Shown here one piece after another: positions 1 to 64,000 of a DNA stretch of 64,000 nucleotides; the first letter of the stretch is position 1; every line of letters begins with the position of its first letter. Below the pieces are notes generated by a model that had not been told where the DNA came from, did not search any database, and saw only the letters and a list, made by a program, of their open reading frames with translations. Source of the stretch: Candidatus Helarchaeota archaeon (lineage in GTDB: Archaea > Asgardarchaeota > Lokiarchaeia > Helarchaeales > RDOG01). The translations under genes and the position numbers were made by a program. The stretch lies in NCBI GenBank assembly GCA_019058315.1, contig JAHPZH010000001.1:1233432-1297431 (forward strand), written 5' to 3'.

Positions 1-531
1 TGGAAGAATTGTTCCTTTGGATTTGGTTATGGGATTCCTCCATTTGTTAAGATATGTAATTTTACCCAAATCCAATCTTGGTGGAGGATCAGGTTGTTCA
101 GAATAGTAACCTAATAAGATTAAAGCAATTATTTTATAACTATTTGGAACTGACAGTAATTTTCTAACCGTTGATCTATTAAAAGCCCCAATCCAACATG
201 TTCCTATTCCTAATTCGATTGCCATTAGCAAAATATTTTGTATAGCTGCACCTACTTCTTCGATCCATGAATCGGAATCTATACAGACAACAATCATTGA
301 AGAACACTGTGCAGCATGCCTTTGACGAAAAAATACTATTTTTGAATTATTAGCAATCTCTTTGAGCAAGTTTTCATCCGTAACCACTATAAAACGGGTT
401 TTTTGCCTATTGGTGGCTGTCGGTGCCCATCTTGCAGCTTCTAAAATTTTGATTAAGTCATCTTGAGGTATTGGTTTTGAGGAAAATTTACGAATACTCC
501 TTCTATGTAAAATTGCATTGCCAACATTCAT
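1..531 (-). CDS. Nitroreductase family protein (partial; 3' end lies beyond the window start)
   Basis: Not in the ORF track. Manual translation from ATG at 531 gives MNVGNAILHRRSIRKFSSKPIPQDDLIKILEAARWAPTATNRQ...GAAIQNILLMAIELGIGTCWIGAF, with the RRSIRxF, APxxxNxQ and GxGTCWIG motifs. The frame is open to position 1. Confidence 0.9.
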   Translation of the reverse strand, partial: MNVGNAILHRRSIRKFSSKPIPQDDLIKILEAARWAPTATNRQKTRFIVVTDENLLKEIANNSKIVFFRQRHAAQCSSMIVVCIDSDSWIEEVGAAIQNILLMAIELGIGTCWIGAFNRSTVRKLLSVPNSYKIIALILLGYYSEQPDPPPRLDLGKITYLNKWRNPITKSKGTILP

Positions 532-614
532 TCTTATTCAGCTTCAATTTATTAAAATAAAAAAAATAAGAGATAACTAAAATTTAATCTTACTAAATAT
601 AAATAATGTTTAAA

Positions 615-1754
615 TTATCTATAGCGTAAAAATTTCTTCTTTATTTTAGTTTTATATTTTTGTTCGATTTGAAATATCAAAGGATGTTCATCTAATGATA
701 CAAATGTATACGCCAACCCTTCTTTGCCCATTCTCCCCGTTCTACCAATACGATGAACATAATTTTGAATCTCATTAGGCATATCGTAATTAATTACACA
801 AGTAACATTTTCGATATCAATACCTCTAGATACTACGTCTGTTGCAACTAATATCATTCTTCTATTTTGAAATTCTTCTAATGTTTTTTCTCTAGCTGCT
901 TGAGACAGATCACTATTGATAAACTTTGCCTTAAACCCTAAACTGTATAAAGTATTTGCTAATTTTCTAGTAGCGACTCTAGTTTTAACGAAAATTAATA
1001 TTTTTAATTGATTACTTCCATTGTAATTATTTTCCAAATCACTTATTATATTGATTAAATGATTTAGCTTATCACTAGATTCTGCAACAACATAATAAAA
1101 TTGCTTAATTGATGATGGAATTCTTTCATCATGTTCTTTTCGTATTGTTATCATAACGGGATCTTTCATGTAATTTTTTGACAATTCTATTGTTTCGTCA
1201 GGGATAGTTGCACCAAAAAACATGAATTGCTGATTGCCCTGGCCCCTAATTAGCTTGAGAATGTAGCTTACATCATCATAAAATCCCATGTCAAACATTT
1301 TATCTGCTTCATCTAGAACTATAATTTTGGGTTTAATTTTCAAACCTTTTGTTAGGTGATCTATTAACCTACCGGGAGTTCCAACGACTATTTGAGCCCC
1401 TCTTCTTATTTGGTTTACTTGATTTTGAAATGAAACTCCCCCATAAATGGTCATAGTTTTAATATTTGTAAATTTTGCAGCTTTGGATATTTCTTCAGCT
1501 ACTTGTTTTGCCAATTCCCTAGTTGGAGTTATGATTATTGCTTGAATTTCAGGACGATTTTCATTAATTCGCTCAATTATTGGAATTCCAAATGCAAGAG
1601 TTTTACCTGATCCCGTTTTAGCTTGACCTATAACGTTTCTGCCTTTTAAAAGGTGAGGTATTACTTTTTCTTGTATAGGAGTTGCTTCTAAAAAATCGTG
1701 AAATTTAAGCCCTTTTAATAATTTTTGTCTTATTTTAAATTCTGAAAATTGCAT
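615..1754 (-). CDS. DEAD-box ATP-dependent RNA helicase (minimal core)
   Basis: Q motif (F..ATPIQ), AKTGSGKT, PTRELA, GG, TPGRL, DEAD, GAT (motif III variant), SRGID, HRIGRTGR. Confidence 0.95.
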   Translation of the reverse strand: MQFSEFKIRQKLLKGLKFHDFLEATPIQEKVIPHLLKGRNVIGQAKTGSGKTLAFGIPIIERINENRPEIQAIIITPTRELAKQVAEEISKAAKFTNIKTMTIYGGVSFQNQVNQIRRGAQIVVGTPGRLIDHLTKGLKIKPKIIVLDEADKMFDMGFYDDVSYILKLIRGQGNQQFMFFGATIPDETIELSKNYMKDPVMITIRKEHDERIPSSIKQFYYVVAESSDKLNHLINIISDLENNYNGSNQLKILIFVKTRVATRKLANTLYSLGFKAKFINSDLSQAAREKTLEEFQNRRMILVATDVVSRGIDIENVTCVINYDMPNEIQNYVHRIGRTGRMGKEGLAYTFVSLDEHPLIFQIEQKYKTKIKKKFLRYR

Positions 1755-1876
1755 AAAATTAACCTTTTCTGTCTGTCTTATTCCGTCTAGTCCGTTAAAA
1801 TCTTTTCTAAAAGGCTTAATTCTATAAAGTTATTAAGTAATCCTTAACTTGAAAATTTCAAAGTCTCGACAGAATC

Positions 1877-1913
1877 TGAAATGATACTGAAAAAATTCCC
1901 TATTATCATTTCA
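1877..1913. repeat. Perfect 10-bp inverted repeat with a 17-nt spacer in the divergent intergenic region upstream of the helicase
   Basis: TGAAATGATA (1877-1886) and TATCATTTCA (1904-1913). Confidence 0.6.
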
Positions 1914-2093
1914 TGTTTTTTTAAAAATATAAATGAAACAAGCTTTTTTAATCTTCTTATTGATAATTTTTTTTCTAATCACTAAATTAGATTTAACTAA
2001 TTTAATAAAGTAGCTGTAAAAGCTTTATATTCAGTATATTAGTAATCTAATCAACATTTTTATTAAGAATCAAATTATAATTAAAATGATCAT

Positions 2094-2273
2094 ATGAAGA
2101 AAATAAAATGTAAAATTTGTGGTAAAGAGGTTCAAATTGAAAAATTAAATGTTAGTTTTTATGCGAAATGGATTGAATTTAAGCCCGGAATATGGGTTTG
2201 TCGAGACTGTGAACAGTCAGCTATTTGGCCAAATATTATTCAATATAAAATTCCCGATGATTATCGTTCTTAA
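2094..2273 (+). CDS. Small zinc-finger protein (59 aa, two CxxC pairs)
   Basis: Below the ORF-track size cut-off. MKKIKCKICGKEVQIEKLNVSFYAKWIEFKPGIWVCRDCEQSAIWPNIIQYKIPDDYRS*, with CKIC and CRDC. Confidence 0.7.
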   Translation: MKKIKCKICGKEVQIEKLNVSFYAKWIEFKPGIWVCRDCEQSAIWPNIIQYKIPDDYRS

Positions 2274-58122: not shown

Positions 58123-58671
58123 TTATTTAATGAGCTTTTCTGCAATTTTATAAAAGGCTTTTTCCACTTGTTCACCAGTCTTAGCGGATGTTTCGAAGAA
58201 CGCAATAGATTTTATAATTTTGGACATTTCTTCGCCTTTTTCAGTCGAAACAGGAGCTAGATCATCTTTTATTAAGCTCCTTGATAGCCCTTTCATCTCA
58301 CTTCTTAAGTCTACCTTGTTACCAACAAGAATTAAAGGAACATCCTCAATATCACGTAAATCTTGAACAAAGTCGGGAACTTCCAGGTATGTGCTGGGTT
58401 TAGTGACGTCATAAACTACTAGAGCAGCACTTGAGCCCCTATAATACATCTGTCTTACACGGCCGAACTTTTCCTGACCTGCAACATCCCAACATAACAG
58501 TTGAACATTTTTATTATCCACTTTAAGATCTTTAATTAATATATTCACACCGATTGTTTCTTTATATGATTCAGAGAATGAATTTTCCACATATTTTTTG
58601 ATTAAAGATGTCTTACCTACAGCAGGGGCGCCCACAAGAATTATTTTGAAATTATATGTTTCCTCACTCAT
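58123..58671 (-). CDS. Rab-like small GTPase (canonical motifs, no C-terminal Cys)
   Basis: GAPAVGKTS, YKETIGV, WDVAGQEKF, YYRGS, GNKVD, ETSAK. Confidence 0.93.
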   Translation of the reverse strand: MSEETYNFKIILVGAPAVGKTSLIKKYVENSFSESYKETIGVNILIKDLKVDNKNVQLLCWDVAGQEKFGRVRQMYYRGSSAALVVYDVTKPSTYLEVPDFVQDLRDIEDVPLILVGNKVDLRSEMKGLSRSLIKDDLAPVSTEKGEEMSKIIKSIAFFETSAKTGEQVEKAFYKIAEKLIK

Positions 58672-59390: not shown

Positions 59391-60257
59391 ATGGGACTTC
59401 TAATGAATGAAAAACGATTTACTAACTTAATAATAACCTATTTAATATTATGGGCAGTATCAGTATTTGTTCCAGATATTCTTTTTAGAAATTCTTCTAA
59501 TATTTTTGCCAAAATGATAAGAATTCAAGTCCCAGTTGCCGAATACGGAATTTTTTCTACTAATCTTCATCTAAGTACTTTATTTGAATTTATTCTACCA
59601 TTTGTAATCAATCCCATCTTCATCTTTCTTTTATATAGAGAGCTTAAAAGTTCTCCTCCACGAGATACAGATAATAGATTGACGATCTGGACTAAATATG
59701 GAATTATAAGTGCAATGTTGATTTTTTCTTTGGGCTATGGCTTTCATTATGTAGGAGATGCACTTGATACAATCATCCCATTTGATTGGATATCAATCAG
59801 TTTAATCACGGGTCATATAAATGAGGCCCTAATATTTATGTATGTGAAGATTCCAGCTTATTATTTTGATGAAGTGATAGCTCATAAATTAGTACAATTT
59901 GGACTATATGGTTCTTATTCAGGATTAGCTATTATACAATATTTGCATCCAATAGAAATTGAATTAAATGAATTAGAGTATTATGGAAAAGCTATTTTAG
60001 GTGGTGCCTTTGGGGGTGCAACAGCAATCGCATTAGCAGAAGGTCAATGTGCCTTTGAATTTTTATTTTTTAATCTCTTTACACTAATATTTATTGTAAT
60101 CCAAATAAAAAAATTAGAAATTAATCTGCGTAAGCTGCCTTTTTTAACTTTCTTCTTATTCTATTTATTAATAATGATAATTGTAACTCTAATTTGGGGC
60201 CTAGTAACTGGATTCAAACCCTTCTACCCATTCTTTTATCAAATGAGCGAATTATAA
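59391..60257 (+). CDS. Polytopic membrane protein, CLN6-like
   Basis: About 7-8 TM segments, with the motifs GYGFHYVGDAL, YYFDEVIAH and AEGQ in the same order as in CLN6 (from memory). Confidence 0.65.
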   Translation: MGLLMNEKRFTNLIITYLILWAVSVFVPDILFRNSSNIFAKMIRIQVPVAEYGIFSTNLHLSTLFEFILPFVINPIFIFLLYRELKSSPPRDTDNRLTIWTKYGIISAMLIFSLGYGFHYVGDALDTIIPFDWISISLITGHINEALIFMYVKIPAYYFDEVIAHKLVQFGLYGSYSGLAIIQYLHPIEIELNELEYYGKAILGGAFGGATAIALAEGQCAFEFLFFNLFTLIFIVIQIKKLEINLRKLPFLTFFLFYLLIMIIVTLIWGLVTGFKPFYPFFYQMSEL

Positions 60258-60376: not shown

Positions 60377-61153
60377 TTAATCCGCCCATCCAATTCTACG
60401 TTTAAACCAATCTGGCATAGCGAAACAGACATAGAAAATAATTGCGGCAGGAATAAATAACACTTGGATGGTTGAAAGCTCTCTTGAAATTGATGTAAAG
60501 ACAATAGCTATAACAAATAATAAAATACCAATTCCAAACCAAATTGAACGGTTACTATTAGCTTTATTTTCATTTCGGACTTTTTTAGCAAAATAGAAAA
60601 AAACTCCAACTGGAATCGCACCAAATGGTATTAAAAGAATTATACGTATTAAGATAATTTCAATAGAGAAGAAAATTGCAAAATCAACAATTTTAGTGTG
60701 TGGAGGACCTTGAATAATTGCCCAACTTTGAGTCCCTAGTAAAATACCTGATAATACTAATAAAAATATAAATATGACGTTAAAACGTTTAGGATAAGTA
60801 ACACGAATTGCAAATGCATTAACAAATAAATAACATATTTGAGCGGAAAGGTACATATTTATTGTTAAAAGTTCTCCTAGCCCTGGTAAACCCCAAGTTG
60901 CGTAACATAATCTTGAAAATACAACTAGTACATTACTAATTATTAAAAATATCATTCCTAATAAAAAGAGCAAAGTTTCTGTTAATTTGTCTCTTCTATA
61001 ATCCTTATATAATTCATAAATTATAAGAAATAAGAATAGCCCAGCAACACCATAGATCACAATTCCAAAAATTTCGAATAGTAGATTAGTAGTATTAAGA
61101 CCAAGTAGTTGATAAATAATATACTGAAAAGGATAATCCCACGACGCAACCAT
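60377..61153 (-). CDS. Seven-TM membrane protein, unknown function
   Basis: About seven hydrophobic helices, C-terminal MPDWFKRRIG; the N-terminus resembles that of 21635-22711. Confidence 0.75.
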   Translation of the reverse strand: MVASWDYPFQYIIYQLLGLNTTNLLFEIFGIVIYGVAGLFLFLIIYELYKDYRRDKLTETLLFLLGMIFLIISNVLVVFSRLCYATWGLPGLGELLTINMYLSAQICYLFVNAFAIRVTYPKRFNVIFIFLLVLSGILLGTQSWAIIQGPPHTKIVDFAIFFSIEIILIRIILLIPFGAIPVGVFFYFAKKVRNENKANSNRSIWFGIGILLFVIAIVFTSISRELSTIQVLFIPAAIIFYVCFAMPDWFKRRIGWAD

Positions 61154-61387: not shown

Positions 61388-64000
61388 ATGGTCGATTTAT
61401 TAAATAATGAGCTTTCAGATCAGATTAATAATTTAAGCCACAAAGCCGAAGAGGAGGAATTAAAATACAATTGGCTTAAAGAAATTGAAATTTTAAAAAA
61501 AGCAGAAAAAATAAGTTCAGAGGAAAATTTCAAGTTAAAAAATGGAGAAATTAATTTTAAATTGGGCGAAATTTATTTAATGGCTGCAAATTTTGGAAAA
61601 ACTGAAGAAAATGTAATAATAAACTTTCAATTATCTAAGAATCATTTTCTAAAGAGTTTGGAGATATTTAAAGACCTTAATATTGAAGAAAAAATATATG
61701 CTACATTAGGTTTCATTGATTATCTAGATTACATATTAGAAACTGAAGCAATTGAAGAAAATATATTAGATAGGGCAAAAAATGAATTCAAAAAAGCGAA
61801 ATTAATTAATTTTAATAAAGGGGATTTAATTGAATCTTTAAAATCGGCAATTTTTGAAAGTAGATTCATAAATCTAATTATGTGTGAAAAACTTATTTGC
61901 ATAGACCCAAATATAGATTTCATCGAATTAGCTTCAGATTATGAAAATCTGGTTGCAAAAATTTGGGTAGATATTAAAAATCAACAACAAGATTTACCCG
62001 AATTTTATTACTATTTCTTTTTGAAAAATATCGTCCATTTTGTAACTTTAATTTTTTATTTCTTACCAGTTAAAGTATCAGTTAAAAGACAGCTTCTAAT
62101 CAATAATTTGAATATTATTTCGGAATTTATAGATAAAATCGAAAATTCAAAGAAAGAATTAAGTTCATTTTATGCTTATTCAATATGCTCTTCATTTAAC
62201 ATGGTATATTCAATATTTTATGTCGAAAGTCAATTTGAGCAGAAAAAATATTTAAAATCTGCACAAAAATGGTTACGAAAAGCAGAAATTTTATTACCTA
62301 ATATCACTGCGAATTCAGCATTGAGAACATTCTATTTCACACGATTTACAGTGTCTATTTTTTTAATTAGACTAGGTTTTTTTGCTAGAGATTTTAAACA
62401 TGTAATGGAAGATTTAAATGAATGTGTTAATCTACTTTTTATTCTTTTTCCCAGAATATTTGGTATAGTTATTACTTTCCTTTCTGTAAATGTTTTTTTA
62501 GCAGCAGCTAATAATCCTTCAGCTCCAGAAGTTCAAAGATTTGATTTTGCTGAAAAAGCTATGGATTTGATTAATTCTAAAATAAATAAATTTTCATTAC
62601 TAAACAATCCAAATTATAAACTCTTTACTATAACAAAAGATGTTCAACTATGTATGGCATTTGGGATATTAGGGGATTTAAGTAAAAATAAAGAAGAGAG
62701 AGATAGATATATTAAGAATTCAAAAACTCTTTTTGATAATTTGTCAAAATTTGATAATCCTTTTATAACAGACAATTATCTTTACTTAACTATAGTTCCT
62801 AGGATTGGAAAAACATTAGCTAGTCATTCAAAAGAGAAAAATAACAAAGTATATTATGACCAAAAGGTAATAGATATATTATTACGTGGTAGAGAAATGG
62901 CAATGGCTTATTTCGATGTCGAGAACCAATTTTTAATTGGAGAAACATATTTTGAAATGGCAACACTAACCAATGATGATAAAATACTAAAAAAAGCTTA
63001 TTCATCATATATGAATACCATTAAATTCTGCAAAGATAAAGGGTATTTTAATTTAGTGGGAACTGCATATATTAATCTTGCCCAAATTGAAGATAGATTA
63101 GAAAATTATTTATCTGCATCAGATAATTATAAAAAAGCCATAGATTCATTCGATCAGGCAATTATGACTCTTACATACACAAAATTGAGTAAAAAGATTG
63201 AGAAGCTAAAAAAATATGTAGAAGCCTGGAGTATAATTGAAATAGCTAAATCATACCATGTAAAAGAGGAACATCATGAAGCACAATTAAATTATGAGCA
63301 AGCTAGCAGAATATTAAATGATTTACGTGATTATAAATTCGAATCACCTTTTTATTCTGCATGGGGTGTGCTAGAAAAAGCAGAAGATTTAAGTAAAATA
63401 AATAAACATCAAGAAGCTGCAGCTACATATTTAGTATCAAAAAATAAATTCCACGATGCTTTAGAAACCCTCAATTCTTACTTGAAAAAAAGAAAATCTC
63501 TTGAGGATATAGATCGAATTTCCAAGTTAACTCAAGTTGCAATGATACGTGAAACATATTGCGACGCTAGATACGAGATTGAAACCGCAAGAATAGAAAG
63601 TAGAAAGGGAAATCATTTAATCGCAGCTGAACTTTATAATAAAGCAAGTGTCGCTTTTGAAAATATATGTCAAAAATTTAAAATTCGACATGAAAGGGAT
63701 GAGTTATCAGCGATTTACTATCTCTGTAAGGCTTGGGAGAAGATGGAACAAGCAGAAGGAGAACAAAAACCAAATCTTTATGATGTGGCCTCACAACTCT
63801 TTGAAAAGGCGAGTAAAATATTTCCGGAAAGTCGTATGAAAAAATTATCTATAGGGAATTCACTTTTTTGTTCCGCTCTTGAACAAGGGAGTTACTTTGA
63901 TAAAACCACTGAATTGGATGAAAAGATTAAACATTATAAAAAAATAAAGATGTATTTACGAGAATCGTCAAAAAACTATCAATTGGGTGGATTCAAACAG
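61388..64000 (+). CDS. Large alpha-helical TPR-like repeat protein (partial; at least 871 aa)
   Basis: Not in the ORF track because there is no stop in the window. ATG at 61388, MVDLLNNELSDQ..., open to ...NYQLGGFKQ. TPR-like segments include GTAYINLAQIEDRLENYLSASDNYKKAI. Confidence 0.85.
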   Translation, partial: MVDLLNNELSDQINNLSHKAEEEELKYNWLKEIEILKKAEKISSEENFKLKNGEINFKLGEIYLMAANFGKTEENVIINFQLSKNHFLKSLEIFKDLNIEEKIYATLGFIDYLDYILETEAIEENILDRAKNEFKKAKLINFNKGDLIESLKSAIFESRFINLIMCEKLICIDPNIDFIELASDYENLVAKIWVDIKNQQQDLPEFYYYFFLKNIVHFVTLIFYFLPVKVSVKRQLLINNLNIISEFIDKIENSKKELSSFYAYSICSSFNMVYSIFYVESQFEQKKYLKSAQKWLRKAEILLPNITANSALRTFYFTRFTVSIFLIRLGFFARDFKHVMEDLNECVNLLFILFPRIFGIVITFLSVNVFLAAANNPSAPEVQRFDFAEKAMDLINSKINKFSLLNNPNYKLFTITKDVQLCMAFGILGDLSKNKEERDRYIKNSKTLFDNLSKFDNPFITDNYLYLTIVPRIGKTLASHSKEKNNKVYYDQKVIDILLRGREMAMAYFDVENQFLIGETYFEMATLTNDDKILKKAYSSYMNTIKFCKDKGYFNLVGTAYINLAQIEDRLENYLSASDNYKKAIDSFDQAIMTLTYTKLSKKIEKLKKYVEAWSIIEIAKSYHVKEEHHEAQLNYEQASRILNDLRDYKFESPFYSAWGVLEKAEDLSKINKHQEAAATYLVSKNKFHDALETLNSYLKKRKSLEDIDRISKLTQVAMIRETYCDARYEIETARIESRKGNHLIAAELYNKASVAFENICQKFKIRHERDELSAIYYLCKAWEKMEQAEGEQKPNLYDVASQLFEKASKIFPESRMKKLSIGNSLFCSALEQGSYFDKTTELDEKIKHYKKIKMYLRESSKNYQLGGFKQ

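Follow-up and report, generated by a model that had tools for sequence, protein, structure and literature searches.

The locus

In this work we describe the gene of a CLN6-like membrane protein at positions 59391-60257 (+ strand) of a 64,000-nt stretch of DNA from Candidatus Helarchaeota archaeon (GCA_019058315.1, contig JAHPZH010000001.1, 1,233,432-1,297,431 of the forward strand). This whole stretch is called the window and all coordinates are window positions, while P0001 denotes the 288-aa protein encoded at 59391-60257. According to the listing of open reading frames (ORF) and the translation, the ORF comprises 288 codons and a stop codon, and the opposite strand shows stops throughout. 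Eight orthologs with 64-94% identity to P0001 were found, which are labelled as proteins from Helarchaeota, Hodarchaeota or Promethearchaeota metagenome-assembled genomes (MAG), all of them Asgard lineages. As the pairwise dN/dS (nonsynonymous to synonymous substitution rates) of the gene against two orthologs is 0.13-0.16, the ORF is a real gene under purifying selection, and a spurious ORF was rejected on the basis of the opposite-strand stops, the orthologs and the dN/dS values. All eight orthologs have a length of 284 aa and their start (MNEKRF or MDEKRF) corresponds to the fifth codon (M5) of the ORF, so that translation probably begins at the in-frame ATG at 59403 and yields a protein of 284 aa. 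As both neighbouring genes are on the opposite strand, the gene is probably transcribed alone.

Homology to CLN6

Human CLN6, the Batten-disease protein, has been described in two bioRxiv preprints of 9 October 2026 as a Ca2+-dependent glycerophosphoglycerol (GPG) epimerase, which converts R,S-GPG into S,S-GPG upstream of CLN8 and CLN5 in the synthesis of bis(monoacylglycero)phosphate (BMP); the active site is a carboxylate-rich cavity on the lumenal side of the endoplasmic reticulum (ER) in a modelled homodimer, and the topology was experimentally mapped as N-in/C-out (10.64898/2026.10.07.757350, 10.64898/2026.10.07.757477). No rescue was obtained with D59A, D131A, D173A, E174A, H178A and E227A, the patient variants R62H, R62C and H127Y as well as the disease variant D59E are inactive, a Y182A/Y223A double mutant fails, and the purified human protein is active with H178A abolishing this activity (10.64898/2026.10.07.757350, 10.64898/2026.10.07.757477). 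According to a QM/MM proposal (combined quantum and molecular mechanics) His178 attacks the phosphorus to form a phosphohistidine, from which the other primary hydroxyl of the same glycerol displaces the His, so that the phosphate moves from position 1 to 3 and the handedness inverts without breaking any bond of a chiral carbon (10.64898/2026.10.07.757350, 10.64898/2026.10.07.757477). Prokaryotic relatives of CLN6 are mentioned in neither preprint, and a literature search gave no relevant paper connecting CLN6 with archaea, Asgard archaea or prokaryotic homologs.

The original prediction had proposed P0001 as a CLN6 homolog, with a match to the Pfam CLN6 profile as its first check. This profile is PF15156 with a gathering cut-off of 27 bits, which is an operational threshold and not a biological feature. 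No match to it at E <= 10 was found on P0001, on its eight orthologs or in the six frames of the genome, so that the direct profile match did not materialize, and searches of Pfam, NCBIfam and the PDB sequences with P0001 and with the profile of its orthogroup did not return CLN6. Despite this we regard the homology of P0001 to the CLN6 family as very highly probable, because a chain through Asgard intermediates is significant. A phmmer search with P0001 against 1.8 billion cluster representatives gave 44 relatives, including P0027 (6.8e-7) and P0044 (1.6e-4), and PF15156 is matched independently by 7/43 phmmer relatives. P0044 itself reaches 30.2 bits on PF15156 and its close relatives P0074, P0073, P0076 and P0075 reach 47.3, 43.8, 41.9 and 40.2 bits, all above 27. 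In the BLASTP comparison P0001 and P0074 share 26% identity over 243 aa (E = 3e-13), and in hhalign the nine-member orthogroup aligned with the P0044 group over residues 40-288 with a probability of 98.4% and E = 5.3e-15. Thus, the proposed homology was borne out by the intermediates and by profile-profile comparison. A feature (language-model) search of the ESM Atlas, carried out for P0001 and for P0085, returned a top cluster with PF15156 on 12% of its members. Of the searches for a eukaryotic CLN6 protein, a profile search found Asgard proteins only, and the P0044 search (E <= 10) found only its own group.

As PF15156 gave no direct match, we classify P0001 as a divergent CLN6-like relative and do not count it among the Pfam-defined members. 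Some Asgard paralogs already carry the label CLN6 from automatic Pfam annotation, and such Pfam-positive proteins (for example P0074 and P0085 with 47 bits on PF15156, both from a Promethearchaeota MAG) are demonstrably homologous to P0001 over residues 40-288.

As human reference for a comparison of motifs we used a by-eye translation of the codon-optimised coding sequence (CDS) printed in 10.64898/2026.10.07.757477, which agrees with the published numbering for D59, R62, H127, D131, D173, E174, H178, Y182, Y223 and E227. All five human CLN6 strings given in the original prediction are present in this translation, and the archaeal motifs follow each other in P0001 in the order it had given, namely FVINPIFIFLL (71-81), IFSLGYGFHYVGDAL (111-125), AYYFDEVIAHKL (156-167), ALAEGQ (214-219) and TLIWG (266-270). 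The similar spacing claimed at the same time also holds, with distances between anchor residues, counted by hand, that are nearly equal: 68 residues for human D59-H127 vs 68 for archaeal E51-H119, 46 for H127-D173 vs 41 for the archaeal equivalent, 54 for D173-E227 vs 57, 52 for E227-W279 vs 52 for E217-W269, and 71 for E227-E298 vs 70 for E217-E287. In a chance test the five human motifs were placed collinearly and ungapped in P0001, and the best BLOSUM62 score was compared with that of 5000 composition-preserving shuffles. P0001 scores 122, the shuffles 57.1 +/- 8.0 with a maximum of 93 (0/5000 >= 122, z = 8.1), and the polytopic membrane ORF next to it only 52. The three polar human motifs have their single best placements at 111, 156 and 214, at the positions predicted before; the two hydrophobic motifs are individually not distinctive in this test. 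A chance similarity to CLN6 was rejected on the basis of the motif shuffles, the BLASTP comparison with P0074 and hhalign.

Predicted architecture

The AlphaFold2 (AF2) model of P0001, calculated from the 55-sequence alignment, has a mean local confidence (pLDDT) of 95.4 and a predicted TM-score (pTM) of 0.91. It consists of a beta-hairpin, which follows the first transmembrane helix (TM1), and seven helices at residues 7-32, 61-86, 96-128, 143-185, 194-217, 221-242 and 250-273. Nine Lys and Arg residues are predicted inside vs four outside, and this charge bias indicates an N-in/C-out orientation like that of CLN6. In the model all conserved polar residues are either placed in outer loops or no more than about 0-10 residues from the outer ends of their helices.

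P0001 is also predicted to form a homodimer, as it was modelled for human CLN6, with an interface score (ipSAE) of 0.82 in three runs vs 0.00 for the best control, contacts agreeing in at least 94% and a pLDDT of the partner of at least 85. In the calibration the mark for a dimer was reached by 20/30 solved one-chain pairs and by 1/23 solved single chains (own alignment used; these counts are rough). The hairpin, TM3, the N-terminal half of TM4, Q219 and the tail at the C-terminus (278-280 and 284-287) make up the predicted interface, and these are the segments bearing the conserved residues. A Foldseek search of the model against the PDB gave no hit at E <= 0.001, VIA-align wide gave a best Z of 7.5 with generic helical bundles only, and the shape search of the ESM Atlas did not exceed a TM-score of 0.32 (TM <= 0.32). 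This means that no solved CLN6-like structure was found, which fits CLN6 being without an experimental structure, and is not proof of a new fold.

Putative active-site residues and proposed mechanism

The features of the gene and the putative counterparts of the human active-site residues are the following.

59391..60257, + strand: CLN6-like membrane protein gene (ORF; eight orthologs; dN/dS)
59514..59570, + strand: predicted extracytoplasmic beta-hairpin between TM1 and TM2, residues 42-60 (predicted strands 42-49 and 53-60)
59541-59543, + strand: Glu51 at the hairpin tip (AEYG), by eye the counterpart of human L-D59-F-G; invariant in the orthogroup and E/D family-wide
59733..59759, + strand: GYGFHYVGD near the outer end of TM3, with His119 and Asp123 as putative counterparts of human His127 and Asp131; both invariant in the orthogroup
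59859..59885, + strand: YYFDEVIAH in TM4, with Asp160, Glu161 and His165 as putative counterparts of human Asp173, Glu174 and His178 (proposed phosphohistidine nucleophile); invariant 55/55
60039..60047, + strand: EGQ turn between TM5 and TM6, with Glu217 as putative counterpart of human Glu227; G218 invariant family-wide, E217 and Q219 near-invariant
60216..60251, + strand: extracytoplasmic C-terminal tail motif KPFYPFFYQMSE (consensus KPxYPFFxQPSE), by eye the counterpart of human K289-Y290-P291-GVIYVP-E298

The family alignment behind this list comprises 55 sequences, which are very divergent (mean column identity 20%), and the orthogroup nine sequences. Y157 completes the Y..DE...H motif of P0001, and in a subset of 18 sequences the tail residues K276, Y279, P280 and E287 are invariant. 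Ten residues were reported as essential in human CLN6, of which six are identical in P0001 and a seventh is changed from D to E. The two proteins are further alike in length (311 vs 288 aa), in the order of the motifs H..GD, Y..DE...H, EGQ and K.YP......E with their near-identical spacing, and in the identity of the catalytic His and four acidic residues, whereas P0001 lacks the long N-terminal cytosolic extension of the human protein. DE...H, EGQ and KPxYPFFxQPSE are also common to P0001 and the Pfam-positive Asgard proteins, but the latter have H...N where P0001 has H..GD and keep a Tyr at the position of human Tyr223, which is not found in the P0001 clade.

The original prediction regarded CLN6 as a protein without an established catalytic activity, which is outdated by the preprints of October 2026. 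Its suggestion that the conserved H..GD, DE...H and EGQ residues form a metal-binding or catalytic site, perhaps a lipid-modifying one, has been strengthened by them, as the human equivalents H127, D131, D173, E174, H178 and E227 are required for the Ca2+-dependent GPG epimerase. Because the His and the adjacent Asp-Glu are invariant in 55 very divergent sequences, we read these residues as a catalytic centre. We consider it rather probable, by analogy with human CLN6, that P0001 is an outward-facing, metal-dependent enzyme that performs phosphoryl transfer through a phospho-histidine on a glycerophosphodiester. As a homodimeric membrane enzyme composed of a hairpin and seven helices it would have a cytoplasmic N-terminus and an extracytoplasmic C-terminus, and Glu51, Asp123, Asp160, Glu161, Glu217 and His119 would be located in the outward-facing half of the protein. 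There the acidic residues together with His119 may bind the glycerophosphodiester by its phosphate along with one or two divalent cations. The phosphoryl transfer would proceed through phospho-His165 and a second hydroxyl would then displace the histidine, which in CLN6 would be the other primary OH of the same glycerol with the phosphate going from 1 to 3 and a flip of the handedness. The site of P0001 would face the cell exterior, whereas that of human CLN6 faces the Ca2+-rich ER lumen.

A histidine nucleophile and a covalent phospho-enzyme formed with a lipid-related phosphate ester are also found in PAP2 phosphatases and in phospholipase D enzymes of the HKD type. PAP2 enzymes act at the outer membrane face as well, but in contrast to the Ca2+-requiring CLN6 both PAP2 and HKD enzymes work without metal. 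The comparison concerns the mechanism only; no sequence or fold relationship between them and P0001 was detected.

Several points weigh against the proposed function. The phospho-His step of CLN6 itself comes from QM/MM modelling with no trapped intermediate (10.64898/2026.10.07.757350, 10.64898/2026.10.07.757477). The archaeal-to-human residue mapping was made by eye from the printed CDS and is motif-anchored, not a computed alignment, and the missing PF15156 match has been described above. Human D59E is inactive, yet the P0001 family carries Glu at this position. Glu217 is present in 8/9 orthogroup members, and the ortholog P0007 as well as P0011 and P0012 from the sister clade have no Glu there. 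Human Arg62, Tyr182 and Tyr223 from the substrate pocket are replaced by Ile54, Gln169 and Ile213 in P0001. For the downstream acyltransferase CLN8 (TLC domain, PF03798) no match at E <= 0.01 was found in the 94.3%-complete genome, and for the BMP synthase CLN5 (PF15014) there was none at E <= 0.01 either, a weak result as the control genomes were also blank. Finally, the lipid-related genes PAP2 and VTT, which follow the CLN6-like gene in two orthologous loci (see below), are still adjacent to each other in this genome but are located ~440 kb from the CLN6-like gene.

Since R62, Y182 and Y223 are not conserved, GPG should not be assumed as the substrate of P0001. The pattern suggests that these three residues are lineage-specific and tune the choice of substrate. 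Lys166, which adjoins the catalytic His165 and is invariant in the P0001 clade, could serve as phosphate binder in place of the missing Arg62, although this is speculative. A true CLN6 equivalent, that is an epimerase from R,S- to S,S-GPG, would agree with the number of essential residues kept, with the Asp that the P0001 clade keeps in place of D131, a position occupied by Asn in most other prokaryotic members, and with an architecture, an inferred orientation and a predicted dimer as in CLN6. We nevertheless judge it quite unlikely, as the three pocket residues are exchanged, no downstream BMP enzymes were found and the P0001 clade is located on the deep branch opposite to the members closest to the Pfam CLN6 model. 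In human, the BMP pathway consists of CLN6, CLN8 and CLN5, whereas neither CLN8 nor CLN5 is detectable in the organism of P0001, from which BMP synthesis is not expected. Our results support P0001 as a divergent Asgard member of the CLN6 family with an intact catalytic core and an altered substrate pocket, without the partners of the BMP pathway.

As the enzymatic function of CLN6 was assigned only in October 2026 and without a solved structure, a compact archaeal homolog with the catalytic core is a candidate for structure determination and for trapping of the phosphohistidine. The archaeal family might also be used as an evolutionary filter on the residues of CLN6, with the invariant His and Asp-Glu on one side vs the apparently lineage-specific Arg62, Tyr182 and Tyr223 on the other.

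Stereochemistry of the glycerophosphate

The S configuration corresponds to sn-1, which is the archaeal type. The product of CLN6 has an sn-1 (archaeal-type) glycerophosphate, and the occurrence of the family in Asgard archaea raises the question of an editing of lipid glycerol stereochemistry after synthesis. It could be imagined that Asgard CLN6-like enzymes shift the phosphate of glycerophosphodiesters between sn-3 and sn-1 at the outer face, interconverting the bacterial/eukaryotic- and the archaeal-type configuration, and that eukaryotic CLN6 is a relic of this archaeal activity, but we see this as a long shot. If true, the 'lipid divide' could be crossed after phosphodiester synthesis and independently of the choice of the glycerol-phosphate dehydrogenase, and eukaryotic CLN6, the maker of the only sn-1,sn-1' phospholipid of mammals, would be inherited from an archaeal ancestor. 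The genome has a strong Fe-ADH_2 match, a candidate of the glycerol-1-phosphate dehydrogenase kind. No paper tying together BMP, sn-glycerol-1-phosphate and archaea was found in the literature search.

Genomic neighbourhood

Upstream of the CLN6-like gene are genes for a GGACT-family protein, a Ras/Arf-like small GTPase, a radical-SAM activase-like protein, a cupin and a Clp1-like P-loop protein, and the block recurs at two orthologous loci from Helarchaeota (L001 and L002). At both of them PAP2 and VTT/DedA genes lie directly downstream of the CLN6-like gene in the same orientation, at one of them together with BacA. BacA belongs to the undecaprenyl-diphosphatase family and PAP2 is a lipid phosphate phosphatase, and all three are enzymes or flippase-like proteins that deal with lipid phosphates. 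Such neighbours would suit an enzyme that applies the same phospho-histidine chemistry to another reaction, as phosphatase, phosphodiesterase or head-group transferase in lipid-phosphate recycling. At the outer face it would then act on the phosphate or pyrophosphate of a polyprenol (dolichol) or on the head group of a membrane lipid and not on free GPG undergoing stereo-inversion, which would also be in line with the exchanged substrate-contacting residues R62, Y182 and Y223 and with no CLN8 or CLN5 found that could use S,S-GPG. Because PAP2 and VTT are ~440 kb away in this genome, the linkage to lipid genes is not obligatory. It is also absent at the Promethearchaeota, Jordarchaeales and other loci examined, the genes are separated by 81-301 bp, which is no demonstration of co-transcription, and no biochemical precedent is known for such a reaction in the CLN6 family, so that we regard this alternative as rather unlikely.

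Other copies of the family have lipid-related neighbours as well. An LPG_synthase_TM (MprF-like) gene is located directly upstream of the family member P0018, and a geranylgeranyl reductase is found two genes from the Jordarchaeales copy. This recurrent lipid theme is suggestive, but the neighbours are too poorly conserved to assign a substrate.

Unlike at the P0001 locus, the Pfam-positive paralog in the Promethearchaeota loci is located between UDP-glucose dehydrogenase/GT2 upstream and VIT1 downstream with PhoU_div genes alongside. As VIT1 belongs to an iron/manganese transporter family, this could point to a non-catalytic protein, either a divalent-cation channel or transporter or a scaffold, in which the metal is bound for transport or stability only, and the descriptions of CLN6 as a trafficking factor from before 2026 would agree with it. 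The purified human protein is active and loses its activity in H178A, and the His and Asp-Glu invariant in 55 sequences are a pattern typical for a catalytic centre, which leaves a non-catalytic role with hardly any likelihood. Compared to this, a phosphoryl-transfer enzyme remains our preferred reading of P0001.

The remaining features near the gene are the following.

58123-58671, - strand: small GTPase of the Ras/Arf/Roc family, 169 bits on Ras, within the upstream syntenic block
60377-61153, - strand: polytopic membrane protein of 258 aa, encoded convergently to the CLN6-like gene and without a Pfam match at E <= 0.01
61388-64000, + strand, continuing past the end of the window: protein of more than 870 aa with weak TPR_12, MIT-domain and Annexin_3 matches, all below the Pfam cut-offs

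The 258-aa membrane protein occupies the place of the BacA/PAP2/VTT block of the two orthologous loci. The MIT and annexin-like signals of the long ORF may belong to eukaryote-like membrane-trafficking parts. In L002 a gene for the alpha-subunit of methyl/alkyl-coenzyme M reductase (MCR) is located at 384-2195 (-), ~6 kb from the CLN6-like ortholog, which fits the alkane-oxidising lifestyle proposed for Helarchaeota.

Distribution and phylogeny

The family profile matches 43/301 sampled genomes of the same phylum, 24/71 genera and 12/90 high-quality genomes, and the CLN6-like family is thus patchy in Asgard archaea. Up to four matches per genome were found, some of them broken, and the genome described here has one. 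Extra copies with interruptions are present at G240:C160:53811-54661 and G285:C283:1047-1688 (same order/class); such copies carry one TAG, carry one TGA and two TAA, or are split in two, which suggests a decay of paralogs.

All relatives with a named source are from Asgard archaea, namely Hel-, Hod-, Sigyn-, Loki-, Jord- or Odinarchaeia, or Promethearchaeota. A quick maximum-likelihood tree, reconstructed from the prokaryotic relatives, shows a separation into two deep branches (SH-aLRT 99). The P0001 clade and the strongly Pfam-positive clade, including P0074 and P0085, are located on opposite deep branches, and sub-threshold CLN6 matches occur on both. Bacterial members of the family are a lead only, consisting of Atlas clusters dominated by Chloroflexota and Actinomycetota and of the weak relative P0050, which is encoded on a contig with bacterial-looking neighbours.

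A search of the GTDB genomes with a degenerate DNA pattern for the tail motif YPFFYQP[ST]E gave only two cyanobacterial intergenic repeats, which were rejected as they are not genes. They are located at L006:1603-1674 (-) in a Kovacikia sp. MAG and at L007:2985-3101 (+) in Cyanobacteriota bacterium JS3, in both cases just downstream of unrelated genes, and share a common short intergenic element that looks like a repeat and not like a gene. One frame of this element reads ...LYPFFYQPSELI..KIIQSY and is coincidentally identical to the C-terminal motif of the CLN6-like proteins.

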